A stretch of 53,569 nucleotides of DNA. It comes from a virus. The position numbers were made by a program, and so were the translations under genes. The stretch spans positions 1-53,569 of IMG/VR virus record IMGVR_UViG_3300045988_160359. One strand, written 5' to 3'. The notes below the pieces were generated by a model that was given only the letters and a program-made list of their open reading frames with translations, was not told the origin of the DNA and made no database searches. Of this stretch, positions 75-30,319 are shown in pieces; the stretch's first letter is position 1, and each line of letters starts with the position of its first letter.

Positions 75-86
75 TACTCTTATATA

Positions 87-1686: not shown

Positions 1687-1854
1687 GAGTTATTCATCTT
1701 TTGTGGGAAACGGAAATTTATAGGAACCGCCATTTTTGAGAAGCATTACTGTGCTGAAATTTACCTCGCCATTATAGACTTTGGCGACACCAATGATTTC
1801 ACTGGCTTCAACGGTGAAGTAAGGAGAACCGTTATGCATTACTGTAAATATCAT
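1687..1854 (-). CDS. Small ORF (~55 aa) coupled to the upstream gene by an ATGA start/stop overlap
   Basis: Its ATG overlaps the TGA stop of gene 1851..2300. The sequence reads MIFTVMHNGSPYFTVEAS.... It is below the ORF-track size cutoff. Confidence 0.3.
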
Positions 1855-2300: not shown

Positions 2301-2758
2301 TAGGTTTCATCTCCGTGGCTGGGCATCTCAATAGGGAGGCCGTTCTTAACGCACTCATTGATATATTCGATAGACTGCTGAGACAGAGGGAGTTTGTCAG
2401 AGGGGCCATAGTTGCCGCTGGTCAGATGCTTCTCAATTTCCTTCATAACTTCATCAGTCTTTTCTGCGGACAGCACAGAATTAACATTCTTAAATTGAAC
2501 ATTTTTGTCCTCGCGCGCGTAATCGCTGCTGAAATAGTCGTACTTGGTAATCTTATCAGCAATCCAGTCGGGCGTCAGGAGGACTTCACCGGGCTCCATA
2601 CCTTCAATTTTGATATCCGCGATGTCTTCATCATCAACCATATCACAAACCTTCTCAACCGCATTGGCATAATTTTCGGCATATACGAAACCGTGAGCAT
2701 TCTGTTCAGCGCCATCGAAGAAATGGACGTCGAAACGATAAAAGCCGGCAGCATTCAT
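2300..2758 (-). CDS. Hypothetical early protein (152 aa)
   Basis: Intact ORF preceded by GGAGG. It is the last GC-richer gene before the AT-rich island. Confidence 0.5.
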   Translation of the reverse strand: MNAAGFYRFDVHFFDGAEQNAHGFVYAENYANAVEKVCDMVDDEDIADIKIEGMEPGEVLLTPDWIADKITKYDYFSSDYAREDKNVQFKNVNSVLSAEKTDEVMKEIEKHLTSGNYGPSDKLPLSQQSIEYINECVKNGLPIEMPSHGDET

Positions 2759-2812
2759 ATTTATTACCTCCTGATTAGTTGTAGTTGAACTGTTGTTAAT
2801 TCATTTCTTATT

Positions 2813-2855
2813 GTTTATATATATATTATATAAAAATTTTTATTAAAAATCAATT
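2813..2855. repeat. AT-rich ~40-45 bp element, copy 2, at the left edge of the AT-rich island
   Basis: tatatatatattatataaaaatttttattaaaaatcaa. Compare with 12..52. Confidence 0.45.
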
Positions 2856-2940
2856 AATTATACATTGTACGGCACGCGGAGGACAAAATAGGACAAACAT
2901 ATAAATTATATTTTCAAGATATGGTGAGAGGTGATAAAAA

Positions 2941-3096
2941 TTGGCAAATGAGAATAATACAGTTAAAATCAGTGTTAGACTGACACAAACTGAGAAAGAT
3001 GAATTACAAAATTTTGCCCAAGCGCAGGATTTAACAATGTCTCAGGTTATACGCAAGGCATTGAAAGAGTATATGAATAAAACAGACAGAATCTAA
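2941..3096 (+). CDS. Ribbon-helix-helix (Arc/CopG/omega-like) DNA-binding protein, ~51 aa, TTG start
   Basis: The translation ...VKISVRLTQTEKDELQNFAQAQDLTMSQVIRKALKEYM has the typical RHH beta-strand plus two helices. The TTG start lies 6 nt after GAGAGGTGA. It is below the ORF-track cutoff. Confidence 0.5.
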   Translation: MANENNTVKISVRLTQTEKDELQNFAQAQDLTMSQVIRKALKEYMNKTDRI

Positions 3097-3111
3097 GGAG
3101 TTGCCAAATTA

Positions 3112-3330
3112 ATGCTAAATACTAATAAAAGAAAAATTATATACTCATTAAGAGTATATGTAGGGCTTAAAGAACGAGGGTTTATCCCTATTGCAACAAC
3201 AGAAAATCCTACCAAACCTAATTTTATGTGTTGGATATTTGAACGGTCAGATGAGTTTGATGATGCATTAAAAGAACTTATGCCTGAATGTAAAAATTAT
3301 AAGTCAGGTGGTGAAAAGTCTAATGGCTGA
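3112..3330 (+). CDS. Hypothetical 72-aa protein
   Basis: ATG preceded by AAGGAG. The stop overlaps the start of the next gene as ATGGCTGA. Confidence 0.45.
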   Translation: MLNTNKRKIIYSLRVYVGLKERGFIPIATTENPTKPNFMCWIFERSDEFDDALKELMPECKNYKSGGEKSNG

Positions 3331-3766
3331 TGTTGAAAAACGTTTTGTATTTTATGGAGAATGGTTAAACAATATTAAATCATTAGATTAGGCCACTTAG
3401 GATAAGGTTATTGCTGATATTGTGCGTTATGGCACTAATGAAGATATGTTTTATAGTGATGACCCTGTGGTATCAACTATTGTTAATTTTACCAAAGGGG
3501 CAATTGACCATTCAAAAGATGAATATTTAAAAAAGGTTATGGCAGGTAAAACAAATGGTAGAAAGAAATCTGTTGATGATGATTAGATATTAAAACTTGC
3601 GAGAGAAGGTAAAACCGCGAGTTAGATTGCGGAATTATTGAATTTGAGTGTGAGTTCAGTGAATCATAGCGAGGGATGGAAGCGTCGTAAAGAATCAGTT
3701 GCTGAAAAATCAGTCGTTGAAGAATCGGTGCTTGAATAGAAAAAACCAGTTGAGTTTATATTTTAA
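3323..3766 (+). CDS. DNA-binding protein with a C-terminal resolvase-type HTH; needs read-through of 5 in-frame TAG codons
   Basis: When TAG is read as sense, the single frame gives ...GRKKSVDDD-x-ILKLAREGKTAS-x-IAELLNLSVSSV. Gln fits the HTH consensus at TAS-Q-IAELL. Under the standard code the ORF is only 21 aa long. Confidence 0.5.
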
Positions 3767-3950
3767 TTGCAAATTTGCAAAAATGTTTTTGCAAATTAAT
3801 TGCAATGCAATGCAAAAATGTTTTGCAAATTTTGCAAGTTTGATTGCAACTTGTTGCAATTGCAAATTGCATTATATAATATATATTTTTGCAAAAAAAT
3901 TGCAAAGTTTTTGCAAATTGCAAAAACTTATTTGCAATTTTATTTGACAA
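3766..3950. repeat. Dense array of about 15 copies of the palindromic hexamer TTGCAA, mostly as TTTGCAAA or ATTGCAAT
   Basis: Directly visible in the sequence, for example ttgcaaatttgcaaaaatgtttttgcaaattaattgcaatgcaatgcaaaa...ttgcaattgcaaattgca. Confidence 0.7.
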
Positions 3951-4327
3951 AACTAACGCTGTGGCACTTGAAAAGTGGCAGTAATGGAAAATTTGGAATA
4001 AAAAGTTCCTATTAATGTATAAATATAATATATAAAAAGGATGTATATGGGTATGATAAATTTTTATAAAGGTTCTTATGAGAATTTAGTAAGTAAAGCA
4101 TTAAATTTTTAGAAAATAGATAATATATATTTAACTAATAATAATGATTTATATTTTTGTATTGAGGAAGCAGGAAGGGTAAATAAGGACGTAGAGAATC
4201 CATTTTTAAATGATAATATAAATGAAATATATGGGTTTAATATATAAAAATAAGAAATAAGCGCATACTTACTTTTTATTTGAATTTAATTAGAAAAATT
4301 ATAAATAGGTAAAAGGAGAAATAAAAA

Positions 4328-4807
4328 ATGGGTTATCATAGTGGATTAAATGGGGAATATAATATTCCTGTGGAAGTAAATAATAAGAATGTAGCGCATT
4401 TTAAAAGATGCTGTAAAGAAGAAGTGCCTGAAAAGGCAATTAAAATAGAAACATATTTAAAAGATGATACAATCTATTTTGTATTACCAAATAATTATAA
4501 ACCTGTAAAGATTTGTTTTGATAGTAATGAAGAAGATAAATGCTATGCCTATGGTGGTAAGGGCAATAAAAAGTTGAATACTAATATTGATTTTACTTCA
4601 TCAGACCCTCGTACTACTGGATATTATTAGAATAATGATTATGTAAATATTAGTGATACGACAGATTACGCATAGCCTAATAATACTTATGTTTCTATAT
4701 TTGATTCTCTTCTGGATTTAAGTAAACAAGTAAATGCTATGGGGTATAAAGCAGAAGACGCTAGTGATGTATTAAATAATATATTTGATAAGTTATATAG
4801 TAAATAA
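4328..4807 (+). CDS. Hypothetical protein (~159 aa) with 2 in-frame TAG codons
   Basis: RBS AAAGGAG. Track ORF 4328..4630 ends at a TAG. The same frame then continues to a TAA at 4805-4807. Confidence 0.45.
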
Positions 4808-4961
4808 TTAACAAGGTTAATATTGTGGCATTTGATTTATATATAAAATTATTATATAATATTTATATATAAGAATAGGAGGTGCCATTTTTGAAATTTC
4901 ATTTGAAAAATGGGGTATAAATAGACATTTTGAAAAATGAAATGAAAAAATGAAATGAAAA

Positions 4962-5345
4962 ATGAAAAATGAATTTACTTATGATGAATTGAAAAATAAA
5001 TACAGTAAAAGAGTTGGAAATTATAAAGGCAGAGATGTAATTGTACGCTCTAAATATGATGATTTGGGCGATAATGTATATATTTTATATGATTATAACA
5101 ATGCCCTTATTGTTGATGGCTATTGGATTGCGACTATCAGTGAAGATGGTAGTTTAAATCATAGAAGAGCAACACCCTGGATTAAGATGGATCGAGCCTC
5201 GCCGGCGGGCAGGCCACTAACGTGTCCTGAAAGTGATTCGGGTGGCGAGAATGATATTAGTCTTGATGTTGACTCAACTCTCGTTGATTCTCTCTTGGAA
5301 TCGGCGTATAATGATATTTTGAGCGATTTGATGTATAAAGAATAA
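4962..5345 (+). CDS. Hypothetical protein (127 aa)
   Basis: Intact ORF preceded by an ATGAAA repeat leader. Confidence 0.45.
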   Translation: MKNEFTYDELKNKYSKRVGNYKGRDVIVRSKYDDLGDNVYILYDYNNALIVDGYWIATISEDGSLNHRRATPWIKMDRASPAGRPLTCPESDSGGENDISLDVDSTLVDSLLESAYNDILSDLMYKE

Positions 5346-5347
5346 AA

Positions 5348-5388
5348 AAATGGAGTGGTTTATCGCCACTCCATTTTTTTTAACCAAT
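5348..5388 (+). terminator. Rho-independent terminator closing the island operon
   Basis: ggagtggtttatcgccactcc hairpin followed by tttttttt and preceded by an A-run. Confidence 0.6.
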
Positions 5389-5770
5389 GATGTTTTTTTT
5401 GACTTATAACGCTTTTTTGAATCTGAGGTTAATACTTATTTAATTGTTTTATCTCCTAATAAACTAAATTAAATAAACCTATTAGCGGGGTTAATGAATA
5501 TAATTGTAAATAACGAATAATGGAACCTTATAATGTTTTTTCTTAATAACAAAATGATTATGGTAGAATGATGATAGTTTTGAAAAATTGAAAAATGAGA
5601 AAATGATGGAAGTTTGGTGCCCCCGCTCGGTACCAACTCATCACTCAATTTCATCGTTATCGTCATCCTCTGAATTTTTCAAGATACCCTTTCCAAAAAA
5701 CGTCGAGCCCAGGTATTCTAATCGCCAATTTCCCAAATAAAAAATACCTGGGCCGACACGTTAATCGAAA

Positions 5771-6145
5771 TTAAATGCGAGAAATCCAGTCGTTGAGAAT
5801 TTCGTCTACGGTTTTACCTTTCTTAATCGCACCCTTAGAGTTTGTCTCAAACCGGAAACCAGGCAGTTCAATCTTGAAGTTACCAGGGTCCTTGTAGAAT
5901 TTAAGGAAGTTGTCCATTACCTTAATGACGTCCTCGCCCTTCAACTCTGCACCCTTATAGCCGACGTAGGCCGCATAGTCGTTGATAGCATCGGCAACCG
6001 CTTCCGCTCGGGCCATCTTTTCTTTGTCCTTCTTCTGGTCAGCATATGCCTTGGTGGCGTCATTTAGCATCGCAGTCATTTCCTTAGCAATATCCTCAGC
6101 GCTCTCGCCATTCATTAAGCGCGTCAGAATATCGTTCTTATTCAT
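5771..6145 (-). CDS. Hypothetical early protein (124 aa)
   Basis: Intact ORF. Confidence 0.5.
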   Translation of the reverse strand: MNKNDILTRLMNGESAEDIAKEMTAMLNDATKAYADQKKDKEKMARAEAVADAINDYAAYVGYKGAELKGEDVIKVMDNFLKFYKDPGNFKIELPGFRFETNSKGAIKKGKTVDEILNDWISRI

Positions 6146-8635: not shown

Positions 8636-8894
8636 AGTATCAACCCTTTCTGCGTTTTTAGGTGTCGCCCACCATATTGTTGTTTCCCTCTTGGAACATC
8701 TATATTCTAACACATATCCGAAGCCTTGTCAAGACTTTTTTTCGGATTTGTGGAATTTTTTTTAAGGTACACGCCCCGCCGGAGAACCTCTCGCCCTCTC
8801 CCTTGGAACAATTATATACTACCACACCCTTGGGCAGATTTCAATAGTCAATACTCACAAAAAATGGGATTTTCAACATCCAAAATTTGTGCAA

Positions 8895-9050
8895 AAAAAC
8901 ACTTGACAAAATTTGTGCTCCGTGGTATAATGGAAATTTCGGGTGCCATAGCCGTGAGCGCCCGACCCATTTTAACACATTTGAGCGCATTTGTCAATAG
9001 GTAAAATGCACAAAAATAAACCAGCGTAGTTGGCTACTACGCTGGTTCCC
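8895..9050. promoter_or_regulatory. Convergent-promoter / hairpin / terminator module
   Basis: The plus strand has TTGACA-N17-TATAAT at ~8903-8931. The minus strand has TTGACA-N17-TAAAAT at ~8997-8969. Between them lies the hairpin cgggtgccatagccgtgagcgcccg. The accagcgtagttggctactacgctggt hairpin follows. Confidence 0.55.
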
Positions 9051-9407
9051 CTGTTGATACTCGCCAGCCGTCCGGACAGCCAGCCCACTTCTACACAGCT
9101 TGACACTTAGAGCAGGCGCAATGCCCATGTAAAGGTCTTTCTCGGCACGCGGTGAATGTGGTTAGAACTTCGTACCCAGTCCCAATTTCTAACGAGGGGT
9201 TCAAGATGGCGGTTGAGAAGAAATTATTGAGTGGGACAAACACTCTATTAAACTCCATCTTGGCTGGGGTCTTAATCAATCTATAATACATATCTAATCA
9301 ATAAATCATAGATTGATTACTAAGGTGGTCGATACAATCGCCATTTCATTTTTCTCACCTCACGATGTTAGTATAGCATAGGCGGGGCTGTTTGTCAAGA
9401 GTTTTTT

Positions 9408-10091: not shown

Positions 10092-10194
10092 CGTTCATCG
10101 CTCCTTTCAGTATCATTATTATAACACATTACAGGGGAATTGCAATAGTCAATACCTACAAAAAACGGGATTTCCAACATCCAAAATTTGTGCA

Positions 10195-10340
10195 AAAAAA
10201 CGCTTGACAAAATTGCCAGTGGGGGTGTATAATAGAAATTTCGAGCGCCACATACGTGGACGCGCGACCGAATTATACCACACGCGCCCGGATTTGTCAA
10301 TAAGCAAAATGCACAAAAATGAGGGAGATTTCTCTCCCTC
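10195..10340. promoter_or_regulatory. Convergent-promoter / hairpin / terminator module
   Basis: Plus strand TTGACA-N18-TATAAT and minus strand TTGACA-N17-TATAAT. The central hairpin is gcgccacatacgtggacgcgc. On the minus strand a gagggagagaaatctccctc hairpin plus T-run terminator follows. Confidence 0.55.
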
Positions 10341-10695
10341 ACTTGCGCGGGCACGACAGCACAACCTTGTATTTTGTTCCATCAAGCGTGAATAAAAATT
10401 CGCGCTCCGCGTTGCTCACGTTCAGGTCAGTCGCGCCGTATGTGGTCAGTGTCTCGGTCAGCAGAGTGATGATAGTCTGCTTTGTGGGATTAGCCTTTCT
10501 TTCTCTTGGTGCGAACTTGTATGCGGTCGGCTGGCGTCCTACTCCCCGCGCTTTCTTGCTTGCCTTTTCCTGTTCTTCGGTCAGCGGAAACGGATTGCCG
10601 CCCTTGTCGATGATAGCATCTTGAACAATAATGTCCTTTGCTTCGGCTTCGGTGCAATCCAGCTTTCGCATGAGGTCGGCAACTCGGTCAGTCAT
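10339..10695 (-). CDS. Cassette protein B' (118 aa)
   Basis: PTAYKFAPRERKANPTKQTIITLL, paralogous to 7724..8122. Confidence 0.55.
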   Translation of the reverse strand: MTDRVADLMRKLDCTEAEAKDIIVQDAIIDKGGNPFPLTEEQEKASKKARGVGRQPTAYKFAPRERKANPTKQTIITLLTETLTTYGATDLNVSNAEREFLFTLDGTKYKVVLSCPRK

Positions 10696-11178: not shown

Positions 11179-11880
11179 TATCTATTATAACAGCTTGCGC
11201 TGGGATTGTCAAGAGTTTTTTCAAAATTCTTGATTTTTTTTGATAGTGTCAACAGGGGAACGCTCCACAAGGGTTCACAGACGACTTACCACCTCGCCTG
11301 ACGAATAAGGTGTTGCTGTTGGTTCAACGTTTCCATGCGCATGGACGAACTGACCAATCTACTCACTTTTCGTTCATCGTTTGGGTTTACTGCGCTGGTA
11401 TAGTCCTTACTTCCTTTACTCTCACACGGTTCGCGACCCGTGGATTTCTTGGGTGGGGCTATTCCCCTCTTGACATTATCAATTATAACACAGGTGCTGG
11501 GGATTGTCAAGAGGTTTTTTGAAATTTTTCCAAATTTCTGAAACCTGTCTACACAGGCGACACATTAGACGCATCTGCCGTGCCGTTCCCCTCTTGACAT
11601 TATCCATTATAACACAGATGCTGGGGATTGTCAAGAGGGGAAATGCGGGTCAGTTACCGAGTTGTCACACCCGCCAGCGTGGCTCCCCCGAGGAGCAACT
11701 TGCTGTCCCCTCTTAACATTATTCATTATAGCACCTTTGATGGAGTTTGTCAAGAGGGAATTTTGGTCTTTTTTTTCAGTACGGCGCGCTCTCACTTACA
11801 CTTGGGACATTACCTACCATTAGCCCAGCCCACGGGGTCTCACCCCCTCTTGACATTATGTAGTATAGCACAGGTGAGCA
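11165..11880 (-). repeat. Tandem array of five ~50-bp palindromic promoter repeats (CTCTTGACA ... TGTCAAGAG)
   Basis: Copies at ~11168, 11464, 11590, 11707 and 11845. On the minus strand each reads TTGACA-N17-TATAAT(TATAGC). They are separated by 70-250 nt of non-coding sequence. Confidence 0.6.
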
Positions 11881-11929
11881 TGAATTACAATAGGCAAACT
11901 ATACAAGTTTCGGGAAAAATAAATAAAAA

Positions 11930-12090
11930 AATTTGTGTAAAAAAACTCTTGACAAAATTGCTGGCGGGGTGTATAATGGTGAATTCCGGCCGAGACGCGC
12001 GAAATCGGCCGGCCATTATACCATGCCCAGGCGCGTTTGTCAATAGGGAAAATTATACAAAAAATGAGGGGAAAATCCCCTCATTTTTTA
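11930..12090. promoter_or_regulatory. Convergent-promoter / hairpin / terminator module
   Basis: TTGACA-N17-TATAAT on both strands. The central hairpin is ccggccgagacgcgcgaaatcggccgg. A bidirectional terminator follows: gaggggaaaatcccctc with A/T runs on both sides. Confidence 0.55.
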
Positions 12091-12621
12091 GTCCATCTGA
12101 CAAGCGAGAAATGCGTCCCGCTTTTCGTTCAGTTTGACGATTTCACCCGCGATTTTGTCAGCCCTCATAGCCAACAGACGCCCATAGCTTCTGCGCCACG
12201 CCAGCATACCATCGGGATTGACCGTGTAAATATACTTTTCCTTTTCCACGGTCTTGGTGTCCTTACGCTCCGTGCGGAAATTCTGTCCATTCATAGTCCG
12301 CAGAGCGTTCTGCGCCACTTCCGGCAACCGCATCCAGTCATACTCGGTCATCAGGGCGTTGCCATCCTTGTCAATCATCCAGATTTCCGCTTCCCACGGG
12401 TCGAGCGTGATTTCCTTGGTGGATTTCTCGGTGCGAACTGCCTTGATGATACCCTCGTCCCGCAGGAACGCCAGAGAATTGTAGGTGTATCGCCGATAGT
12501 CGTGCTTTGCTTTGGTGAAGTCCTCGGAAGTGAACTCCTTATTCCCGAACAGGTCTACCAGCCACTTGTAGGTCTTGACCGTGCGGTTGAAGTTGTGAAC
12601 GTTAGCGTAGCGAGCTTTCAT
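12088..12621 (-). CDS. Hypothetical early protein (177 aa)
   Basis: Intact ORF. Confidence 0.5.
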   Translation of the reverse strand: MKARYANVHNFNRTVKTYKWLVDLFGNKEFTSEDFTKAKHDYRRYTYNSLAFLRDEGIIKAVRTEKSTKEITLDPWEAEIWMIDKDGNALMTEYDWMRLPEVAQNALRTMNGQNFRTERKDTKTVEKEKYIYTVNPDGMLAWRRSYGRLLAMRADKIAGEIVKLNEKRDAFLACQMD

Positions 12622-12733
12622 AGTTTTTCTCCTTTTCTATTGGTGGGGCTTACCATCGTTTCCCCTACCTTGAATTTGTAATGTTATTATAGCATGGAAT
12701 GGGGGCGTTGTCAACCCCCATTCCAAACTTTTT

Positions 12734-12949
12734 TTACGGGGGATCGTGCTTGCGGTACTCAGTCAGGTCAGGGTCGCCAATCCATTCAGAAAAGTCAACC
12801 CAGGAGTCGAACACGTGAAGAATTTCGATTTCATCAGGTTCAAACACCCCGCCACAACAGGCGCAGATTACGAAACCATTTTCAAGCTGGATACCAGCCT
12901 GAACGCCATCAGAATGGTCGCCCTTAAAAAGCACTTGCTTAATAGGCAT
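12734..12949 (-). CDS. Hypothetical small protein (71 aa)
   Basis: Intact ORF with a CACCGG motif. Confidence 0.4.
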   Translation of the reverse strand: MPIKQVLFKGDHSDGVQAGIQLENGFVICACCGGVFEPDEIEILHVFDSWVDFSEWIGDPDLTEYRKHDPP

Positions 12950-13016
12950 TGTACTTACCTCCTTGTTTTAGTATAGTCATTATACCACATGAGAAAGGGG
13001 CTGTCAAGCCCCATTC

Positions 13017-13673
13017 TCAAAACTTGGGAAAACATTTTACCTCAAAGGGCGCGTCCCATGCGTGGACGTTCTTGGTGTATCGCTTGTGCATCTTCTGACA
13101 GGCGAGGAAAATTTCCATTTCCTGCATAGCGTCAGACAGGGCGGTGTGTTCTTCGGAAAAGTCGGGGTTATCGTGGAGATAACCATACACCGCTTCGACA
13201 GAGGTTGCACAGGTCTTGCCATTCTTGGAACGCTTGCCATGCTCTCGGCAGTATTCCGCATAGGACTTTTTGTGGGTGATAGTTTCCAGTGCCATCAGAT
13301 AAAGGTCGATGAACTCGAAATTATCCAGCAGGTCGCGGAAACAGGTCTTGCAGAAGTCAAAACCGGAATTGTACGCCATCACATAGCGAACGCCGTAATG
13401 GTCGCACAGGTTTTTGACTACCTCATAGGCTTCGCGCTCCGTGGCGATAGCGGAGATTTCGCCAGTTTTGAGCCGTTCGGCATATACGGGAAAATTCTTC
13501 TTGGCGTAGCCATCGAGGGCGATTTCGTCATAATGCTCCATCACCAGCAGGGAAGTGGTGGCGAGGATTTCGCCCTTGCGGTCGTGGATAATCGCGCCCA
13601 CATTATACATTCCCGTGGGGTGAGCCGCGCCGCCTACCGTTTCAGTGTCCAGCGTGCAGTAGATATTTTTCAT
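13017..13673 (-). CDS. DnaQ-like DEDDh 3'-5' exonuclease
   Basis: Exo I LDTETVG, Exo II YNSGFDF and Exo III HTALSDA. Confidence 0.6.
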   Translation of the reverse strand: MKNIYCTLDTETVGGAAHPTGMYNVGAIIHDRKGEILATTSLLVMEHYDEIALDGYAKKNFPVYAERLKTGEISAIATEREAYEVVKNLCDHYGVRYVMAYNSGFDFCKTCFRDLLDNFEFIDLYLMALETITHKKSYAEYCREHGKRSKNGKTCATSVEAVYGYLHDNPDFSEEHTALSDAMQEMEIFLACQKMHKRYTKNVHAWDAPFEVKCFPKF

Positions 13674-13784
13674 TATTCATTCTCCTTTTCTCTTGGTTGG
13701 GCTTACCATCGTTTCCCATACCTTAATTACATTACATATTATAGCAGACAGGGGTGAGGTTGTCAACCCCTGTCTGCTATTTTT

Positions 13785-14231
13785 TTACAGGTTTCGCAAA
13801 ATTTCCATCAGGAGGTCGGCGTTGTATGCCATATTGTGAGTGTTTGCCGTCCACTCGTTGAGGTTGCGCTGTTCGTCATCGAACAAAATCGCGTTGGGGC
13901 AGGTCGCACAGTTGGACTTGGGAACGCCATAGGGGACAATATGGATTTCGTCCCACTGAACGCTGGGGAGATGTTTTGCCAGCCAGTCGCGCTTGACTTC
14001 GGCTACTTCGGCATTGAACTTATCCGTTCCGCTCTTGGACAGCCAGCTGATGATGCCGATATTGTAGCCACGCGCCTGCAAGCGGTTCAGGTAGCGGGCG
14101 AGGGTGGAGAAATGGACAAGCGGGCGAGCGTCCGCATATACGCTTGTGTCAGCGGCTTCCAGCTTTGCCAGCCAGTTAGGGTCGCCATACAGGTCGGCGA
14201 TAGTCCCGTCCATGTCCAGATAGATAGTCAT
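13785..14231 (-). CDS. HAD-superfamily phosphatase (DxDGT)
   Basis: MTIYLDMDGTIAD at the N-terminus after GAAAGGAAG. The track ORF extends to 14354. Confidence 0.55.
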   Translation of the reverse strand: MTIYLDMDGTIADLYGDPNWLAKLEAADTSVYADARPLVHFSTLARYLNRLQARGYNIGIISWLSKSGTDKFNAEVAEVKRDWLAKHLPSVQWDEIHIVPYGVPKSNCATCPNAILFDDEQRNLNEWTANTHNMAYNADLLMEILRNL

Positions 14232-14384
14232 AGTATCAACTTCCTTTCTTGATTGTAATGCTATTATACAGGATAAAACGCAATTTGTCAACAGTTTTTT
14301 TCGGTTTTGCTCTTGGTCATTTCGCACAAACTTTCGGGATGCGCGCTTGGGCAAATTTGTTCAATTTACCTATTGACAAAATTG

Positions 14385-14520
14385 CTGGCAGGGTGTATAA
14401 TGGAAATTTCGAGCGCCAGGGCCGTGGGCGCTCGGCCGAGTATACCACAAATAGGGGTGTTTGTCAATAGGTAAATTGAACAAAAAAAATCTCCCAAATT
14501 TGGGAGATTTTTCAATTTAC
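14385..14520. promoter_or_regulatory. Convergent-promoter / hairpin / terminator module
   Basis: Plus strand TTGACA-N17-TATAAT. Minus strand TTGACA-N17-TATACT. Hairpin tcgagcgccagggccgtgggcgctcgg. Terminator tctcccaaatttgggaga. Confidence 0.55.
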
Positions 14521-14720
14521 TTGTTGGCGTGGAGAATGGAGTGCAGGATTACGACAATGAGCCAAATGACCAGCACCAGCTTCCACGAGAACACGATGGC
14601 GAAAGAGCCGATGGACGCGATGCCGATAGCAGGGAGAAGCCAGCAGAACAGCCAAACCAGTCCGGCGGTACACAGGAAGTCGAAAGCGGCAAGTGCCAAA
14701 AACAACAGAACGATGAACAT
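14517..14720 (-). CDS. Small hydrophobic membrane protein (67 aa)
   Basis: Almost entirely hydrophobic. The RBS is GAGAGGAG. Confidence 0.5.
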   Translation of the reverse strand: MFIVLLFLALAAFDFLCTAGLVWLFCWLLPAIGIASIGSFAIVFSWKLVLVIWLIVVILHSILHANK

Positions 14721-14722
14721 TT

Positions 14723-14920
14723 TTATTCTCCTCTCTTAAATACGATGGTTTTGTGTGTGGTAAAGGTCGCTCCGCGAACAAGCGGGTCATTTGCCAGGTC
14801 ATTTGCGATGAATGACAAGGCTTCATTCTCGTTCTTGAACCACTCGCTATTAGTGAAGCGTTCGCCCCAAGAAGTTATGCCCCACCACTCGATGTTGTAG
14901 TAGACATCTTTGGTTTCCAT
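14723..14920 (-). CDS. Hypothetical small protein (65 aa)
   Basis: RBS AAGGAGGG. Confidence 0.5.
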   Translation of the reverse strand: METKDVYYNIEWWGITSWGERFTNSEWFKNENEALSFIANDLANDPLVRGATFTTHKTIVFKRGE

Positions 14921-14933
14921 TGTTAATCCCTCC

Positions 14934-15083
14934 TTAGTAAATTTGTTCGCCGTTGTGATAGCGTTCGTATCTCGCTTCGAGGAAGTCGAGAATGAACTCG
15001 AAATCGTCCGCGTCCGCGGGGTCTACGAACGCCTTTTCGAGGATTTCGCCGGTGTGGTCATTGAAAACTTTAATCATTTCCAT
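14934..15083 (-). CDS. Hypothetical small acidic protein
   Basis: The start is placed at MEMIKVF after AAGGGAGG. Confidence 0.4.
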   Translation of the reverse strand: MEMIKVFNDHTGEILEKAFVDPADADDFEFILDFLEARYERYHNGEQIY

Positions 15084-15149
15084 TTTGTTGTCCTCCCTTA
15101 TTTGATGATACCATTCTAACACAGAGGGGCTGATTTGTCAACCCCTATT

Positions 15150-15626
15150 TTACAAATTTTTGCTTTCTGCCACGAAATATTTTGCGCCATACTGCGCCAC
15201 AATGTCCTTGACCTTTTTGCTCTCAGCTTGCGTGGCACAATAGAAATTAAATAGCGTGTGTTTGTTGCTAATCTCAATGTATGAGTGTGGAATGTCTCGC
15301 AGGTCAAAATCCACGGCGGCTCGATACTTAGTAGGAACAGTCATTTCGATTTTCCACAACTTTTCTTTGCGCGCCAACTCCTCAACCCACTTAACCGCCA
15401 GCACACCAATGAAATTACAGGCGGCGGTGATGCCCATTTTTGCCAACGTAGAAACGCCGTCAATGTTAGTCAAAATAATAACATAGGAATAGAAGCCATA
15501 GGTTAGCGCATTGATACCGGCGGCAACCCATTTATTGCCTTTAACAGTCAGAATAGACTTGATGGTGGACAGCACCACATTCACAGCGGTACAGATAATG
15601 AATAGAATAATAGCGTTCATAATCAT
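15150..15626 (-). CDS. Membrane protein with two N-terminal TM segments and a cytoplasmic domain
   Basis: The start is placed at MIMNAIILFIICTAV after AAAGGAG. Confidence 0.45.
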   Translation of the reverse strand: MIMNAIILFIICTAVNVVLSTIKSILTVKGNKWVAAGINALTYGFYSYVIILTNIDGVSTLAKMGITAACNFIGVLAVKWVEELARKEKLWKIEMTVPTKYRAAVDFDLRDIPHSYIEISNKHTLFNFYCATQAESKKVKDIVAQYGAKYFVAESKNL

Positions 15627-15762
15627 CACTCCTTTTTCAGTATAATAATAATAACACATTTAATTGAAAATGTCAAGAAAAATTTTTGTCGTAGTTAAAT
15701 TCTCACAAGATTAGTTTTTTGTTCCGTGTAGTTAGTTATAGCTAAACTTGAAAAGAGGGGCG

Positions 15763-16134
15763 TTAATGCCCCTCTGTTAGTTTGTTATACATACTCCACA
15801 GCGTTTCACAGGAATGGTTAGTCTGTTCAGCCATCCATACAATTTGGTCATCAGTCGGCAGGTATTTATCATCACGCCACCCGAAAAATCTTTCACAGGA
15901 CTGGTATGCCTTATACTCGTCCTCTGTCAGTTTGCCGCGCAACCGCCAGTCCCAGCAAACAGAGTCCACCATAGACCATATACACGCGCCTACGATAGTC
16001 AGTACCATAATCGCAACCGTTGCATATAGCACCAGTGTGGATTTTATCATACCATACACCAGCAGACCGAAACCACACACAATGAGGAAATTGCGCCCAT
16101 ACCTTTTAAGGGTCAACTTCTGAAAATCAGACAT
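15763..16134 (-). CDS. Membrane protein (123 aa)
   Basis: Two hydrophobic segments. Confidence 0.5.
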   Translation of the reverse strand: MSDFQKLTLKRYGRNFLIVCGFGLLVYGMIKSTLVLYATVAIMVLTIVGACIWSMVDSVCWDWRLRGKLTEDEYKAYQSCERFFGWRDDKYLPTDDQIVWMAEQTNHSCETLWSMYNKLTEGH

Positions 16135-16345
16135 TTTCTCTACTCCTTAACATATTGTCAGTAAATTCGTTGGAGAACTCCTCGGCGAAATCCTCACCAT
16201 AACCACGATTGGCAATTACCTCCATAACTGTCTCAATGCCGGACATATAATAGGGATTGCCGTTGATGGCATCATAACGCCCTTGGAACATAGGGCATTC
16301 GCGCAGGTCGCTGAAAACCATCTGATACGCTTTCTTCAACTCCAT
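16127..16345 (-). CDS. Hypothetical small protein (72 aa)
   Basis: Intact ORF. Confidence 0.45.
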   Translation of the reverse strand: MELKKAYQMVFSDLRECPMFQGRYDAINGNPYYMSGIETVMEVIANRGYGEDFAEEFSNEFTDNMLRSRENV

Positions 16346-16424
16346 TGTTCTTACCTCCTTGTTTCAGTATAGCCATTATACCGTATTACAGGATAGAAGT
16401 CAATCGTCAAATTGCACAAAATTG

Positions 16425-16560
16425 CGGCGAAAAATTTGTGGAGTATACCTATTGACAAAATGCCGGGCGCCACAATCGTTGGCGCGCGGCCGAAAATGTC
16501 AAGTGAAAAATTATACAAAATTTGGGCTGGATTTTTGTTCATCCAGCCCAAATGATTTTT
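16425..16560. promoter_or_regulatory. Degenerate copy of the promoter / hairpin / terminator module
   Basis: It has TTGACA boxes and the gccgggcgccacaatcgttggcgcgcggc hairpin, but weak -10 elements. The gggctggatttttgttcatccagccc terminator is present. Confidence 0.4.
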
Positions 16561-16807
16561 AGTCCTTTTCAAAAATAAAATCCGGTTTGAAAATGTAGAG
16601 GAACGCCACAGCGTAATGGAAAATCGGAATGATTGAGCCGGTGATGACTGTCAGCCAGTTAGAAAACGGACTGCGCTTGCTTTCGCCCCGGTTCTTGAAT
16701 GCTTCCTGCGCCTGTTCCTTGTTTTTCTTCATAGTCGAAATGATGCTTGCGATGCCCAGCCAGTAGAGAACGATACCGATGATGTAAATAATGAGAATGA
16801 TTTTCAT
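16559..16807 (-). CDS. Small membrane protein (82 aa)
   Basis: Two TM segments. Confidence 0.5.
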   Translation of the reverse strand: MKIILIIYIIGIVLYWLGIASIISTMKKNKEQAQEAFKNRGESKRSPFSNWLTVITGSIIPIFHYAVAFLYIFKPDFIFEKD

Positions 16808-16891
16808 AAATGTATCTCCTTTTTATTTGATTTACTTTTCCGATTTTGGAACGAAGCCACGGTTACTGGCTTTTGCGCTGAGAGTAAATGA

Positions 16892-17173
16892 TTATTCAAA
16901 CAAAACTTTTTCCCGGATGGTATAGCTTGCGATAATAGCACCGGAAAGCAAAACATAGGTTTCAAAACTGTATTTTTTCTTTTTGGAGGTATACGCCCTA
17001 CGCTTGCCGTTGAAATGCTCCTGAATGGTAAAACCCATTTCTGCATCAACGAGGTACAGGAAATAACTCAGTTCTTCAAACAGAGATAAAACCATTTCTT
17101 CGGCATCAGCTCGATTACCAAACAGTGCTATTAGTCTGGATGAATTTTCAAATACGGCATACCCAGTTTTCAT
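16892..17173 (-). CDS. Hypothetical small protein
   Basis: The start is placed at MKTGYAV after AAAGGGAGG. Confidence 0.4.
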   Translation of the reverse strand: MKTGYAVFENSSRLIALFGNRADAEEMVLSLFEELSYFLYLVDAEMGFTIQEHFNGKRRAYTSKKKKYSFETYVLLSGAIIASYTIREKVLFE

Positions 17174-17190
17174 TTTACTTACCTCCCTTT

Positions 17191-17391
17191 TTAGTGCTTT
17201 GGAACGAAACCCCGGCAGAATTGACGACACCAGGTGCGCTCGTTCTTTCGCTTCATACATTTACTCTCGCCCATACTGTTCATTACCTTGCCGTGGTTAT
17301 AACCCCAGTATTCACAGTTGGAACATCTTACCTTGTCAGGCTCTACGCAATAACGGTCGGCCAGTTCAGTTCTGATTTCAAAAGTAGTCAT
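17191..17391 (-). CDS. Cys-rich small protein (66 aa)
   Basis: CVEPDKVRCSNCEYW...C...C. Confidence 0.45.
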   Translation of the reverse strand: MTTFEIRTELADRYCVEPDKVRCSNCEYWGYNHGKVMNSMGESKCMKRKNERTWCRQFCRGFVPKH

Positions 17392-17479
17392 TCGGGGTAT
17401 CCTCCTTTATTTGATGTATTTATTATACCACACTTCTTGGTTGTTGTCAATAAAAAATGTGGGATTTCTCCCACATTTT

Positions 17480-17710
17480 TTATTTATTTTCTAACCGCAT
17501 TTTATCAGATCCGATAAGCGCGGCCAGCAGGTTTGAGGTATCACGGACTTGGCTCATAGAATACTCTTCGCCAATGTTGGAAATAGCGTATTCTTGTTCG
17601 TAGTCATACATCAAATCGAACAGGTGAGAAATGACCTCACGGGCGTCTTGAAGTTTGTTCTTTTCCTCTTGGGTAAGTTGAACCTGAACGTTTGAGGTAA
17701 TAATGTTCAT
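17480..17710 (-). CDS. Small protein (76 aa), paralog of 17726..17953
   Basis: LTQEEKNKLQDAREVISHLFDLMYDYEQEY aligns with LTENERKTLRDAYDILNELYDVIADNDCEY. Confidence 0.45.
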   Translation of the reverse strand: MNIITSNVQVQLTQEEKNKLQDAREVISHLFDLMYDYEQEYAISNIGEEYSMSQVRDTSNLLAALIGSDKMRLENK

Positions 17711-17725
17711 TTGTTGTACCTCCTT

Positions 17726-17953
17726 TTATTTACCGATTTCCACTTTTTCAGTGGGGGCAAGCATTTGAAGCACATTGGCTGTAAGCGCGACGTCCACTCT
17801 GTCATAGCCATTCCCGCAAGTATCGCTCACATACTCGCAATCATTATCGGCGATGACATCATACAATTCATTGAGAATGTCATAGGCGTCGCGCAAGGTT
17901 TTCCGTTCATTCTCTGTCAACTTGGCATAGATGGGAGCTTTGATAATTTCCAT
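17726..17953 (-). CDS. Small protein, paralog of 17480..17710
   Basis: The start is placed at MEIIKAP after AAAGGAG. Confidence 0.45.
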   Translation of the reverse strand: MEIIKAPIYAKLTENERKTLRDAYDILNELYDVIADNDCEYVSDTCGNGYDRVDVALTANVLQMLAPTEKVEIGK

Positions 17954-18022
17954 TTTGATATTCTCCTTTCTCTTGGTATTATCTATTATAGCAGATAAGG
18001 ACTTGTTTGTCAAGCCCTTATC

Positions 18023-18352
18023 TTAATTTTTATTCATCAGGTAGTTAGTCTCGATAGTCCAACCGCAGTCTTGACAGGTGTAGTAAAATGTTTCGCTCAT
18101 ACGGTAGCGAGTAGAGGAAGAGAAGCGGTATTCGCCGCCGCACTTGACACATACGCCATTATTGAAAGTGTCGCAGTCATTGATGTGTTCCTGTCCCATC
18201 ATAGCACCAACACCGAAGAAGATAGCACAGCAGATAATGAATGACAGTACCTTGCTCACCCAACGGTCGCAACACCCAATAGCAACAGATAAACCGATAG
18301 GCAGACCAGCGACACCACCCATAAGCAGACCACCGATAATTACATCAGACAT
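18023..18352 (-). CDS. Membrane protein with a C-terminal zinc ribbon
   Basis: The start is placed at MSDVIIGG after AAGGGAGG. CVKCGG...CQDCG. Confidence 0.45.
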   Translation of the reverse strand: MSDVIIGGLLMGGVAGLPIGLSVAIGCCDRWVSKVLSFIICCAIFFGVGAMMGQEHINDCDTFNNGVCVKCGGEYRFSSSTRYRMSETFYYTCQDCGWTIETNYLMNKN

Positions 18353-18422
18353 TTTTTCGTCCTCCCTTGTTTTGTTATACTCATTATAGCAGAAATGGGG
18401 CTTGTTGTCAAGCCCCAATTTT

Positions 18423-18746
18423 CTACTTTACTACATAAAATTCGGGGTGGCGTTCTTCATTCTTGCGAATGCGCTTGACCAACTGTTGAGGTAAGCGGTT
18501 TTTGCCAGCACTCTTGTATATAGCGACAGCCCGTTCAAAGGTTGCGGGGTATGCGGTGATGATGAAATTCTCATATAAGTCCAGCACCAAAATGATGCCA
18601 GTCGAGAGCAAACGCAGGCGCGCAGTTTGGCGTTGGTCAATGACCTCAATCATCACGCGGTCAGAATATCCGAGATATTCCTGTAAGAGGGCGAGCCGGT
18701 TAGCCCGCTCCTCTGTCAGATGGTTCGACATAGTGTAGTTTTCCAT
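18423..18746 (-). CDS. Hypothetical protein (~107 aa)
   Basis: The start is placed at MENYTMSN after GGGGTGG. The track's 186-aa ORF fuses it with the upstream gene. Confidence 0.4.
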   Translation of the reverse strand: MENYTMSNHLTEERANRLALLQEYLGYSDRVMIEVIDQRQTARLRLLSTGIILVLDLYENFIITAYPATFERAVAIYKSAGKNRLPQQLVKRIRKNEERHPEFYVVK

Positions 18747-18928: not shown

Positions 18929-19044
18929 AATGACCTCCTTTAATTGATGGTATAAGTATAGCATACCTACTGGGCGTTGTCAACCGTCAAATTGCACAAA
19001 TTTCGGGATAAAAAATTGTTGAAAATACCGAACACAAAATGCTT

Positions 19045-19190
19045 GACAAATTGGCTGGGCTGTGGTATAATGGAATTTCCGGCCGCAACAGTCGTGGGCG
19101 GCTGGCCAAATTATACCATAGAAATGCTATTTTGTCAATAGGCAAAATGCACAAAAAAATGAGCCAAAATTTGGCTCATTTTATAATTCC
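19045..19190. promoter_or_regulatory. Convergent-promoter / hairpin / terminator module
   Basis: TTGACA-N17-TATAAT on both strands. Hairpin ccggccgcaacagtcgtgggcggctgg. Terminator gagccaaaatttggctc. Confidence 0.55.
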
Positions 19191-19284
19191 TATTCCGATA
19201 AGACAGAGGTACAGAAGAACACCACCGAAACCGAAAAATACAATCAGTCCCATAAACCACTGCCACAATCTTTCGTGTTTCATA

Positions 19285-20062: not shown

Positions 20063-20174
20063 GACCTCCTCTGTTTTATGTATACAGTATAGCACAGGGG
20101 TGCGTGAATGTCAATAGTCAAAATGCACAAATTTCGGGATTTGGAATGTATAATTTTTGTTCATAATGCCTATT

Positions 20175-20290
20175 GACAAAATTGTTGGGACATGGTATAA
20201 TGGTAAATTTCGCGCGCCAGGGCCGTGGGCGCGCGACCGAGTATAGCACAAATGGGGCGCGTTGTCAACAGGCAAAATGACCAAAATTTT
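20175..20290. promoter_or_regulatory. Convergent-promoter / hairpin module
   Basis: Plus strand TTGACA-N17-TATAAT. Minus strand TTGACA-N17-TATACT. Hairpin tcgcgcgccagggccgtgggcgcgcga. Confidence 0.55.
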
Positions 20291-20346
20291 CAATCGAATT
20301 ATGGGCATAATGCCATATATAAAAAACAAGGGCTTTCGCCCTTGTC

Positions 20347-21415: not shown

Positions 21416-21534
21416 GTTGTGTATCTCCTTTGTTGTTTTGTTGTACTCATTATAACACGCCTATTTCGTTTTGTCTATTGGCAAACTATACAAATCGGGA
21501 TTGCGAATTTTGTGCGAAATTTTCGCATTTTTCT

Positions 21535-21640
21535 CTTGACAACTGGTGGGCTGCTGTGGTATAATATTTCGGGGCGCCACGTGCTTGATGAGCGCGACGA
21601 TGCTCGTTAAAATTTTAACAATCCAACAGCAAAAAATAAA
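21535..21640. promoter_or_regulatory. Promoter / hairpin module, followed by one TTTTAACAATC iteron
   Basis: Plus strand TTGACA-N18-TATAAT. The hairpin is cggggcgccacgtgc.... aaaattttaacaatcc lies at about 21613. Confidence 0.45.
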
Positions 21641-21646
21641 GGACGC

Positions 21647-21835
21647 TTATTCAGCGTCCCATTGAGTGATTTCTTCAAGGGTCAGCCCATAGAACTCAAC
21701 AGCTTCTGCCAGCTCCGCGGCTTCTTCCTCTGCGCCATAGCTTGTCCAATAGGCGTCCAGTAAGTTGATGATTTTCTCATAGGCTTCATCGGAAAGAGTA
21801 TCAATGATGTTGGAAACCTCGAATGTGTTTTTCAT
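21647..21835 (-). CDS. Hypothetical small acidic protein (62 aa)
   Basis: Intact ORF. Confidence 0.45.
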   Translation of the reverse strand: MKNTFEVSNIIDTLSDEAYEKIINLLDAYWTSYGAEEEAAELAEAVEFYGLTLEEITQWDAE

Positions 21836-27008: not shown

Positions 27009-28205
27009 ATGACTGTAGATAATGATAAAAAAGTATATTATTGCGAACGATGTAATAGAACTATGGGCGCTGACCAGTTTTATACATCTAATAATTTAGA
27101 AAAATATCCAAATGATGGAAAACTCCCTCAATGTAAAAAATGTATTACAATGCTTGTAGATAATTGGAATCCAGAAACTTATATGTGGATTCTACAAGAA
27201 ATTGATGTACCTTATGTTCCAGATGAGTGGAGTAAATTAATGGTAAAATATGGACAAGATAAATCTAAATTAACTGGTATGAGTATTTTAGGTAGATATT
27301 TGTCCAAAATGAAACTTAAACAATATAGAGATTATCGATGGAAAAATTCTGAGTTTTTATAGGAAGTGGCTAATAATAAATTAGAACAAACTATGAAACG
27401 ACAAGGCTATGATGCCCAGCAAATAGCAACAGCTATTGCTAAATCTACTGTCGCTATCCCAGAAGAAGAATTAAAACCTTACACTCCTGAATTACCAGAA
27501 CGTTTTAGAGATGGTGATGATTATTTTGATCAATAGAATGGTATTGAATATGATCCAGCAGATGACCTCGATTTAACAGAAGAAGATATTTTATATCTTC
27601 GTATGAAGTGGGGTAAAGCGTATAAACCCGAAGAATGGGTTAAACTAGAGCAACTCTATGAAGAAATGATGAGTTCTTATGATATCCGCGGCGCTGGCCA
27701 TATTGATACATTAAAATTAATTTGTAAGACATCCTTAAAAGCAAACTAGTTGATCGATATTGGTGATATCGAAGGTTTCCAAAAGATGAGCAAGGTTTAT
27801 GATAGTCTAATGAAATCAGGTAATTTCACCGCCGCTCAAAACAAAGCAGATACAGGAGAAGCATTTGATTCTATTGGAGAATTAGTGGCCATGTGTGAAA
27901 CTGAAGGATTTATTCCTCGGTATTATATGGAGGGACCAAAAGATAAAGTTGATGAAACTTTACAAGATTTAAAGAATTATACACACACATTAGTCACTGA
28001 AGAGATGAATCTAGGTAATCTCATTGAAGGGGCTATTAAGAAAATGCAAGAAGAAGAAAATAAAGAAGAAGACCAAGATATTGAAGAAGATTTAACGATG
28101 GAAGAAATCGATCATCTTAAAGATGAAGATTTAATTGAATATAATGATTTCCTTGAGGAAGAGTCTGAAATAGATGCTTAGACTTTAAGGAATTTAGAAG
28201 GATAA
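27009..28205 (+). CDS. Putative terminase small subunit (N-terminal CxxC...CxxC zinc ribbon, acidic C-terminus; 3 in-frame TAG)
   Basis: The call rests on its position directly upstream of terL. Track ORFs 27009..27362 and 27750..28181 share one frame. Confidence 0.35.
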
Positions 28206-28206
28206 T

Positions 28207-30307: not shown

Positions 30308-30319
30308 GGAGGTGGAATT

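Follow-up and report, generated by a model that had tools for sequence, protein, structure and literature searches.

Putative terminator hairpins that enclose the -35 box of consensus promoters in the early block of a TAG-recoded phage

This study concerns a compact element that recurs in the DNA of IMG/VR virus record IMGVR_UViG_3300045988_160359, positions 1 to 53,569. This whole stretch of 53,569 nucleotides (nt), which is phage DNA, is referred to below as the window. At six places in the window a consensus promoter on the minus strand and a GC-rich hairpin occupy the same DNA, with the -35 box of the promoter lying in the loop of the hairpin. The reading favored here is that each of these composite elements is a junction between two early genes, at which a putative terminator or attenuator of the first gene is fused to the promoter of the second.

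The early block and its promoters

From about 6 to 24 kb the window consists of a minus-strand block of densely packed small genes with 42-49% G+C. The G+C content steps sharply at ~6.0 and ~24.0 kb, and elsewhere in the phage it is 28-35%. Plus-strand late genes with about 30% G+C flank this early block; long open reading frames (ORFs) appear in them only when TAG is read through. The TAG-interrupted late regions cover 1-6000 and 24000-53569 (examples are 28189-29940, 30308-31981 and 42676-50991), and their genes include a terminase with 11 in-frame TAGs, a portal and a tape measure protein of 2772 amino acids (aa) with 63 in-frame TAGs. The minus-strand early block uses the standard code with TAG as a stop (e.g., 18423-18425). 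No tRNA genes were found in the window.

The terminase is nearest to those of large Firmicutes siphoviruses, namely Enterococcus phages VRE9_4/H1/EF1, Geobacillus phage E3 and the TAG-recoded Phass-1. This affinity is consistent with the Gram-positive style of the signals, i.e., TG-extended -10 boxes and GGAGG ribosome-binding sites. Judged by its genes, the phage is a large TAG-recoded siphovirus of Firmicutes, from a lineage that is unrelated to the T4-like myoviruses. Seven of nine early proteins compared with Pfam had no family; one was assigned to NT5C above the Pfam cut-off and one gave weak matches below threshold only. A scan of 5.5-26.5 kb with Rfam gave nothing above chance, and no deposited phage was matched when 12-19 kb was searched with megablast.

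Perfect copies of TTGACA-N17-TATAAT number 29 in the window, as compared with 0.05 expected, and 27 of the 29 lie within 6.2-21.9 kb. About 44 promoters are found if up to one mismatch is allowed. An earlier reading, made from the sequence alone and called the sequence-only reading here, had counted more than 25 consensus sigma-70 promoters and described a dense promoter grammar in a 23-kb early region. The count and the density were borne out by this search; the block itself measures ~18 kb (6-24 kb).

Consensus promoters on the plus strand also occur inside the block, at 8903, 10204, 11949, 14373, 19043, 20173 and 21536. A module of ~135 nt is repeated at 8875-9055, 10176-10350, 11921-12095, 14345-14520, 19015-19195, 20145-20320 and 21508-21680, with a degenerate copy at 16420-16560. 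It contains two convergent consensus promoters, whose -35 boxes are ~66 bp apart, and a GC hairpin between the -10 boxes; a conserved TAGGCAAAATGCACAAAAA and then a terminator lie downstream. The plus-strand promoter of the module is predicted to give an RNA of ~105 nt that would run antisense to the minus-strand transcript at its 5' end. A tandem array on the minus strand at 11184-11753 holds four perfect consensus promoters at intervals of ~120-300 nt. The spacers of the array closely resemble one another (TTGACAATCCCCAGCA.CTGTGTTATAAT), the sequence downstream is similar (GATAATGTCAA) and there is no obvious long ORF between the promoters.

Hairpins around the -35 box

The sequence-only reading had placed composites of this kind at six sites. 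Scanning and folding recovered all six where it had placed them, each with a hairpin that encloses the -35 box. The layout is the same throughout: the 5' arm ends at the -35 box, TTGACA lies in the loop and the spacer, as far as the -10 box, is taken up by the 3' arm. The six elements (S1 to S6) and a possible seventh, all on the minus strand, are listed here with their folding energies.

S1, 18383-18426, minus strand: promoter core 18383-18411 (-10 TATAAT 18383-18388, -35 TTGACA 18406-18411); hairpin 18389-18426, -22.2 kcal/mol, with inner stem GGGGCTTG/CAAGCCCC at 18396-18417 and loop ACAA; TAG stop of the upstream gene (18423-18425) inside the outer stem; scored terminator-like on both strands; predicted to drive gene 18023-18352.
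S2, 17985-18031, minus strand: promoter core 17985-18013 (-10 17985-17990, -35 18008-18013); hairpin 17993-18023 (AGATAAGGGCTTG/CAAGTCCTTATCT, one G.U pair), -18.3 kcal/mol; plus-strand T5 at 18027-18031; upstream TAA stop 18023-18025 abuts the stem; predicted to drive gene 17726-17953.
S3, 15113-15161, minus strand: promoter core 15113-15141 (-10 TAGAAT 15113-15118, -35 15136-15141); hairpin 15125-15146 (AGGGGTTGA/TCAGCCCCT, loop CAAA), -14.1 kcal/mol; plus strand T-rich at 15148-15161; upstream TAA stop 15150-15152; predicted to drive gene 14934-15083.
S4, 13738-13787, minus strand: promoter core 13738-13766 (-10 13738-13743, -35 13761-13766); hairpin 13744-13777 (GCAGACAGGGG/CCCCTGTCTGC), -23.9 kcal/mol; plus-strand T7 at 13780-13786, tail score 4.3, overlapping the upstream TAA stop 13785-13787; predicted to drive the gene of a 218-aa protein, 13017-13673, via a 64-nt leader.
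S5, 12979-13019, minus strand: promoter core 12979-13007 (-10 12979-12984, -35 13002-13007); hairpin 12991-13018 (GAGAATGGGGC/GCCCCTTTCTC), -19.3 kcal/mol; TGA stop of the 218-aa gene (13017-13019) within the 5' arm; plus-strand T-run absent; inner stem scored as a sense terminator (sense tail UUUCUC, score 3.06); predicted to drive gene 12734-12949.
S6, 12686-12735, minus strand: promoter core 12686-12714 (-10 12686-12691, -35 12709-12714); hairpin 12696-12724 (GGAATGGGGG/CCCCCATTCC, 9-nt loop), -22.8 kcal/mol; plus-strand T7 at 12729-12735, overlapping the upstream TAA stop 12734-12736; predicted to drive the gene of a 177-aa protein, 12088-12621.
Possible seventh element, atypical, 8704-8752, minus strand: -10 TAGAAT 8704-8709, -35 8727-8732; looser hairpin 8711-8752 (ATCCGAA...TTCGGAT with an A-rich bulge), -10.3 kcal/mol, which is under the threshold that the other six pass.

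Folded as RNA over 39 nt, the six hairpins have minimum free energies between -14.1 and -23.9 kcal/mol. For the remaining 38 promoters in the region the values are 0 to -7 kcal/mol, apart from two at about -10 kcal/mol; these are the possible seventh site (8704-8732) and the promoter at 17422, where one arm is borrowed from a neighboring terminator. The six stems have 5-16 pairs and a distance of 4-12 nt from arm to arm. Four of the six hairpins have extra pairs between the TTG(A) of the -35 box and CAA or TCA in the spacer, so that only a tetra- or pentaloop is left. A GGAGG-type ribosome-binding site and an ATG follow 29-64 nt past each -10 box.

All six promoters have a spacer of 17 nt and the TG of an extended -10 box, and the hexamers are perfect in five. 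The sequence-only reading had each -35 box followed by a consensus -10 at exactly 17 nt; the spacing holds everywhere, but the promoter at 15113 has TAGAAT and not TATAAT. A stem of the type GGGG(C)/(G)CCCC, likewise attributed to every site, is present at five; at 17985 the stem is AAGGGC/GTCCTT (GGGC/GTCC), with a G.U pair.

The association of hairpin and promoter is in excess of chance. With a hairpin defined by dG <= -14 and at least 5 enclosing pairs, 6 of the 37 minus-strand promoters carry one. Shuffling both flanks of all 37 promoters gave an expectation of 0.10 hairpins and a maximum of 2 in 300 shuffles. When the real upstream arms were swapped among the promoters, 0.23 hairpins were expected versus the 6 observed.

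Conservation, shuffling and distribution

The 218-aa protein served to retrieve sixteen related loci from IMG/VR; six of them (L001-L006) have 88-92% DNA identity with the window over the early block. Five of the six elements, including S1, are present throughout L001-L006, and the atypical element at 8704-8752 is kept there as well. S2 occurs only in the window and in L004/L005; it is absent in L001 and fused with S1 in L002, L003 and L006. Variants of S3 in L001 and L003 have a stem weakened to about -10 kcal/mol.

The site orthologous to S4 is informative with respect to the pairing. Its stem is GCAGACAGGGG/CCCCTGTCTGC in the window, GCAAATAGGGG/CCCCTATTTGC in L002-L005 and GCAGATAGGGGC/GCCCCTATCTGC in L006. 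Two pairs have changed on both sides (G-C to A-U and C-G to U-A) with zero one-sided intermediates, and L006 has one extra pair, which was gained on both sides. In the alignment of these orthologues 98.6% of the cells are paired, as compared with 32-55% after the partner has been shifted by 1-3 columns. Conservation of the stems in relatives, on which the sequence-only reading depended, is thus what was found: the stems are kept, with compensatory changes, and these changes indicate that the pairing of the hairpin is under selection.

Paralogous sites have the GGGG/CCCC core in common; their outer arms differ, yet they are mutually complementary. In relatives with 61-67% protein identity the design recurs at other junctions, where the stems have unrelated sequences. 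The number of hairpin promoters per distant relative is six each in L009 and L016 and none in L012, L014 and L015. On this comparative evidence the pairing is selected, though individual junctions are not bound to particular genes.

A recombinant junction was found among the close relatives. The window and L004/L005 have the order gene X, S1, gene A (109 aa), S2, gene B; gene B is B1 in the window, and B2 followed by B1 in L004/L005. L002, L003 and L006 carry a chimera in which the hairpin and spacer of S1 are joined, exactly at TATAAT, to the 5' untranslated region of S2, and gene A is deleted. L001 lacks S2, with the next gene coming directly after gene A. The inner GGGGCTTGACA(A)ACAAGCCC is common to S1 and S2. 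Among the 88-92% identical relatives, synteny breakpoints are for the most part located at promoter or terminator modules. At 17726-18352 and in L001-L006 there are two diverged small-gene paralogues (MEIIKAPIY..., MEFIESPIY...), whose number and order vary among the same relatives; this variation indicates that early cassettes are duplicated and lost rapidly.

The paralogy of S4 and S6 extends over ~100 nt and takes in a structured leader; their cross-match is 78%. The 64-nt leaders behind S6 (12621-12685) and S4 (13673-13737), on the minus strand, are themselves paralogous. They contain a hairpin GGUAGGGG-AAACGAUGGUAAG-CCCCACC, with cores at 12646-12664 and 13699-13717, which has one compensatory pair (G-C vs U-A) and lies ~25 nt upstream of the ribosome-binding site.

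We searched IMG/VR with a pattern that describes one version of the element only (GGGGC-TTGACA-N3-7-GCCCC-N5-9-TATAAT, with a promoter spacer of 13-21 allowed). The search resulted in 84 matches in 78 stretches, corresponding to 54 distinct sequences from many samples and contig sizes, and in 82 of the 84 matches the promoter spacer is exactly 17 nt. Two controls were run. A pattern with a non-complementary second arm was found in 8 stretches (4 distinct sites), and one with reversed polarity, i.e., C-first (GCCCC...GGGGC), also in 8 stretches (5 distinct sites). The spacer is rich in U at roughly a quarter to a third of the IMG/VR sites.

The element is present in cultured phages, too. A BLAST search with a typical element gave matches in the intergenic DNA of many cultured Firmicutes phages. 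Enterococcus phage BC611 (Saphexavirus, NC_018086) has -35-in-loop elements at record positions 40389, 42602, 45571 and 47313, directly upstream of the DNA polymerase gene and of other early or replication genes. They combine a AAAGGGGC/GCCTCTTT hairpin and a 17-nt spacer with a clear sense U-tract inside the spacer. Three of the four have a G.U pair in the sense RNA only (GGGGC/GCCTC), which becomes A.C in the antisense RNA. The BC611 stems are shorter and look like canonical sense terminators, whereas the window stems fill the spacer. No such composite is mentioned in the literature that was searched, which dealt with TAG-recoded phages (Phass-1, PMC10607447) and with the genome of an Enterococcus phage (PMC7503890).

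Function of the composite element

The closest known counterparts are the promoter-early stem-loops (PeSLs) of the T4-like phages RB49/phi1, PST/T4 and nt-1/KVP40 (Arbiol et al. 2010, PMC2839356; Comeau et al. 2014, PMC4122927). A PeSL comprises a near-perfect sigma-70 promoter, an AT-rich upstream region that holds the preceding stop, and a stem-loop, often polyG then polyC, in one of five positions with respect to the promoter, among them overlap with the -35 box; PeSLs take part in the insertion and deletion of orphan genes (PMC2839356, PMC4122927). When the stem-loop of PeSL211/210 was put in front of lacZ, downstream of a strong promoter, expression fell about as much as with rrnB T1, and the crossover in RB49 mini-circles was mapped to the stem-loop (PMC2839356). 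In our scan of RB49, most GGGG-loop-CCCC structures lie within the spacer or span the -10 box, and some abut the -10; one stem-loop, upstream of regA, encloses the -35 box.

The window elements resemble PeSLs in having TTGACA-N17-TATAAT with a superimposed polyG/polyC stem-loop, the preceding stop upstream in AT-rich DNA, and a Shine-Dalgarno sequence with a small, mostly orphan gene downstream. Furthermore, they lie in a hyperplastic early region, and insertions and deletions between close relatives have their junctions inside the element. There are also differences. To judge by the terminase and the 2772-aa tape measure protein, the window phage is not a T4-like myovirus, which makes the elements analogues and not homologues; -35-in-loop is their only type of overlap, and their stems are longer, with 9-16 pairs that span about -47 to -13. 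Terminator activity has been shown for PeSLs of RB49/phi1 only (PMC2839356), and for the window elements it is predicted. In every structural and comparative feature that was checked the two agree, and on these grounds the window elements are an analogue of PeSLs in an unrelated lineage and not a new kind of element.

Bidirectional intrinsic terminators have the same GC-rich, G-first hairpin, with an A-rich 5' side that can pair with a pyrimidine- or U-rich 3' side, and stand-alone terminators of the window are built alike (e.g., 12058-12090 and 17449-17484). The composites differ from them in that a promoter hexamer is in the loop, the spacer and -10 box stand in place of the sense U-tract, and the flanking genes are co-directional and not convergent. 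The host-takeover module of the Bacillus phage SPO1 and moron cassettes have small early genes, each with a strong sigma-A promoter, a ribosome-binding site and a terminator. SPO1, which like the morons is discussed in PMC2839356, is similar in being a phage of Firmicutes with many small early genes that have their own signals; to our knowledge, a terminator hairpin overlapping the -35 box has not been described for SPO1 or morons. An N4-type hairpin promoter for a virion RNA polymerase was rejected, since the stems differ in sequence, perfect host hexamers are present and the giant ORF of the window encodes the tape measure protein, not a polymerase.

The position of the hairpins relative to genes indicates the strand on which they may act. 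A long ORF on the same strand ends no more than 25 nt upstream of the -35 box at 62% of 124 hairpin promoters, as compared with 15% of 526 hairpin-less promoters; the median distance to the ORF end is 19 nt versus 90 nt. At the six window sites the upstream stop is 0-12 nt from the stem or inside it. None of the six junctions has a separate terminator, while many other junctions have a canonical hairpin and T-run just upstream of the promoter. Hairpins are thus tied to an upstream stop on the same strand, and this placement favors a role in the sense RNA. The sense role also draws support from the U-tracts and G.U pairs of BC611, from the U-rich spacers at part of the IMG/VR sites, from the RB49 stem-loops that abut the -10 box and from the terminator activity of PeSLs (PMC2839356).

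We therefore give a probability of roughly 0.55 to the reading that the composite is a compact junction of two co-directional early genes and a functional analogue of the PeSL, which would act as a sense terminator or attenuator plus promoter. The host sigma-A/sigma-70 promoter (consensus -35, 17-nt spacer, a usually TG-extended -10 and phased A-tracts) would fire the small gene downstream. The GC-rich, G-first hairpin begins 0-14 nt past the upstream stop codon; its loop contains the -35 box, and it extends as far as the -10 box. RNA polymerases that read through from the upstream gene would transcribe it. In the read-through RNA it may function as an intrinsic terminator or attenuator, whose imperfect tail would consist of the 3' arm, which is rich in pyrimidines, and the UAUAAU that the -10 box contributes; its minimum role may be that of a protective 3' hairpin. 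The next transcription unit would thereby be insulated without a separate terminator. Since an A-tract precedes the stem, the opposite strand reads as a hairpin followed by a U-run, which should also stop antisense transcription, be it as a by-product or as a second function. The common promoter core may in addition be a site of homologous exchange, where gene cassettes are inserted or deleted. The anatomy, its excess over chance, the covarying stems, the link with gene ends, the recombinant junction and the wide distribution are observations; that the promoters are active, that the hairpins terminate and on which strand this counts is inferred.

Several results weigh against this reading. From the outer stem the sense tails of the six sites score 0.6-1.6, and from the GC core 1.0-3.1; the antisense tails score 0.2-4.3 from the outer stem. 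From the GC core the sense and antisense tails are about equal. The canonical terminators of the region have tail scores of 2.5-6, above the six composites on either strand, and among the six only S4 (antisense) and S5 (sense) look canonical. Because the six sites have no canonical sense U-tract, sense termination may be weak. Measured from the outermost pair at 125 sites, a tail score of at least 2 is reached by 63 antisense tails and by only 4 sense tails. A wobble test with 131 strand-symmetric sites was neutral (26 sense G.U pairs vs 25 antisense, i.e., A.C). The association between breakpoints and modules is inseparable from a plain intergenic location. Two further comparisons were set aside: an excess of sense G.U pairs among close relatives (4 vs 1) came from a set preselected by the sense fold, and a scan for polarity fails to discriminate between sense and antisense as a G-first hairpin remains G-first on the complementary strand.

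The sequence-only reading saw the elements as promoters whose hairpin and plus-strand T-run can also serve as a terminator for antisense or read-around transcription. Taken as a rival, this would mean that hairpin and T-run exist mainly to stop such transcription where it enters the early block. The sources of such transcription would be the plus-strand late genes, which do flank the block, or the seven plus-strand consensus promoters inside it, and the plus-strand tails do beat the sense tails at five of the six sites when scored from the outer stem. The T-run that was claimed for each hairpin exists at five sites. It is absent at 12979-13030, where the tail is AAAACTTGGG; it is offset from the stem by AAAC at 12725 and only moderate at 15147 and 18418.

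The T-runs were examined in a profile of 534 hairpin-less promoter contexts from L001-L110, aligned on the -35 box. These contexts have A peaks at -45 to -40, -56 to -51 and -65 to -62 and a T peak at -51 to -47, with a period of ~10-11 bp. Hairpin promoters have the same A/T peaks, and the A-tracts of the six window sites lie within the -45 to -40 and -56 to -51 peaks; the plus-strand T-runs at 12729-12735, 13780-13786 and 18027-18031 correspond to -50 to -56, -49 to -55 and -49 to -53, respectively. The stems of hairpin promoters start at about -40 or about -46 to -48, which is where the A-tract ends. We had considered the A-tract as a terminator tail that tracks the base of the stem; this idea was dropped, as A-tracts are phased to the -35 box in all promoters.

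The T-runs thus sit at phased A-tract positions that are common to hairpin-less promoters, and they can be explained as a UP-like feature of the promoter. The phased A/T upstream suggests that nearly all early promoters of the group have full UP elements or curved DNA. The plus-strand T-run is probably UP-element-like and is not good evidence for an antisense terminator. In addition, one of the six sites is without a T-run, each plus-strand promoter has its own terminator ~100 nt downstream, and the tight link to an upstream stop on the same strand is not predicted by an antisense role. The BC611 elements have sense U-tracts, with G.U pairs that would become A.C mismatches in the antisense RNA. 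Together, these results indicate that it is unlikely that stopping antisense transcription is the main function; an antisense terminator is a possible side effect of the A-tract rather than its evident purpose. Of the dual element proposed by the sequence-only reading, the terminator-like GC hairpin on a consensus promoter of the host type is retained, but not the emphasis on antisense transcription, as the T-run is not universal. We conclude that, as a class, these elements are basically putative sense terminators or attenuators joined to the promoter that follows, and that in the window version the stem has been lengthened through the spacer at the cost of the U-tract.

Alternatively, the hairpin might not terminate at all and instead be a signal for stability or processing of the RNA in polycistronic early transcripts, i.e., a block to 3' exonucleases or an RNase III-type site, for which the intercistronic hairpins of T7 or SP82 early mRNAs are a model. 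This would fit very stable stems of -18 to -24 kcal/mol that have no U-tract and stand directly after stop codons, and the fact that pairing rather than sequence is conserved. However, RNase III substrates need about two helical turns, and the stems, with their tight loops, are short for this enzyme; an RNase III processing hairpin was rejected on the 5-16 pairs. Related sites in other phages have canonical U-tracts, and the analogous PeSL stem-loop lowered downstream expression like a terminator (PMC2839356). We therefore consider a signal of this kind improbable.

It is quite unlikely that the inverted repeat in itself does little, and that it either persists as a passenger in a mobile regulatory cassette, spread by recombination between promoter cores, or promotes such exchange via template switching at the hairpin. 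The chimeric S1/S2 junction and the variable presence of S2 would be expected from such a cassette, as would the paralogy of S4 and S6 as ~100-nt cassettes and the crossover of RB49 mini-circles at a stem-loop (PMC2839356). The hairpin junctions, furthermore, are not kept at orthologous genes at 61-67% identity, with none in L012, L014 and L015. Against a passenger stand the compensatory substitutions at a single orthologous site, which show selection on pairing, and an enrichment of at least 10-fold over the non-complementary and reversed-polarity controls in many unrelated contigs.

A device that works at the level of DNA, whether a cruciform that occludes the -35 box and gates it by supercoiling or a dimeric phage repressor that binds the palindrome and shuts the early promoters, is very improbable: the palindrome is centered on the -35 box and its GGGG/CCCC core is constant among sites, but loops of 4-12 nt disfavor cruciform extrusion, this arm distance and the covarying outer arms are unlike a protein operator, and the ~10-fold preference for G-first over C-first (78 vs 8 stretches) is not predicted by a DNA-only model. 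The occlusion of the -35 box by hairpin extrusion, as suggested in the sequence-only reading, found no support.

Returning to the junction with a sense terminator, we would only tentatively extend it into a general statement. The -35-in-loop hairpin could be a fully overlapped regulatory code of Firmicutes phages that is not yet formalized, in which ~45 bp would hold a consensus sigma-A promoter, a two-way insulator and a crossover point. The UP-like A-tract would then double as the antisense U-tract, and the spacer and -10 box as the sense tail.

The composite elements do not overturn current understanding. They are a caution for gene and terminator predictors, as promoter and terminator can share the same 45 bp, and they may offer compact insulator-plus-promoter parts for synthetic biology if the termination is true. 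For uncultured phage contigs the element provides a simple sequence signature of early host-takeover regions and cassette boundaries. T4-like phages with Gram-negative hosts are not alone in using the PeSL design; large TAG-recoded siphoviruses and cultured Enterococcus phages have it as well, apparently by independent origin. In these phages the same combination of a consensus host promoter and a G-first stem-loop is reused as a boundary for the shuffling of small early genes.

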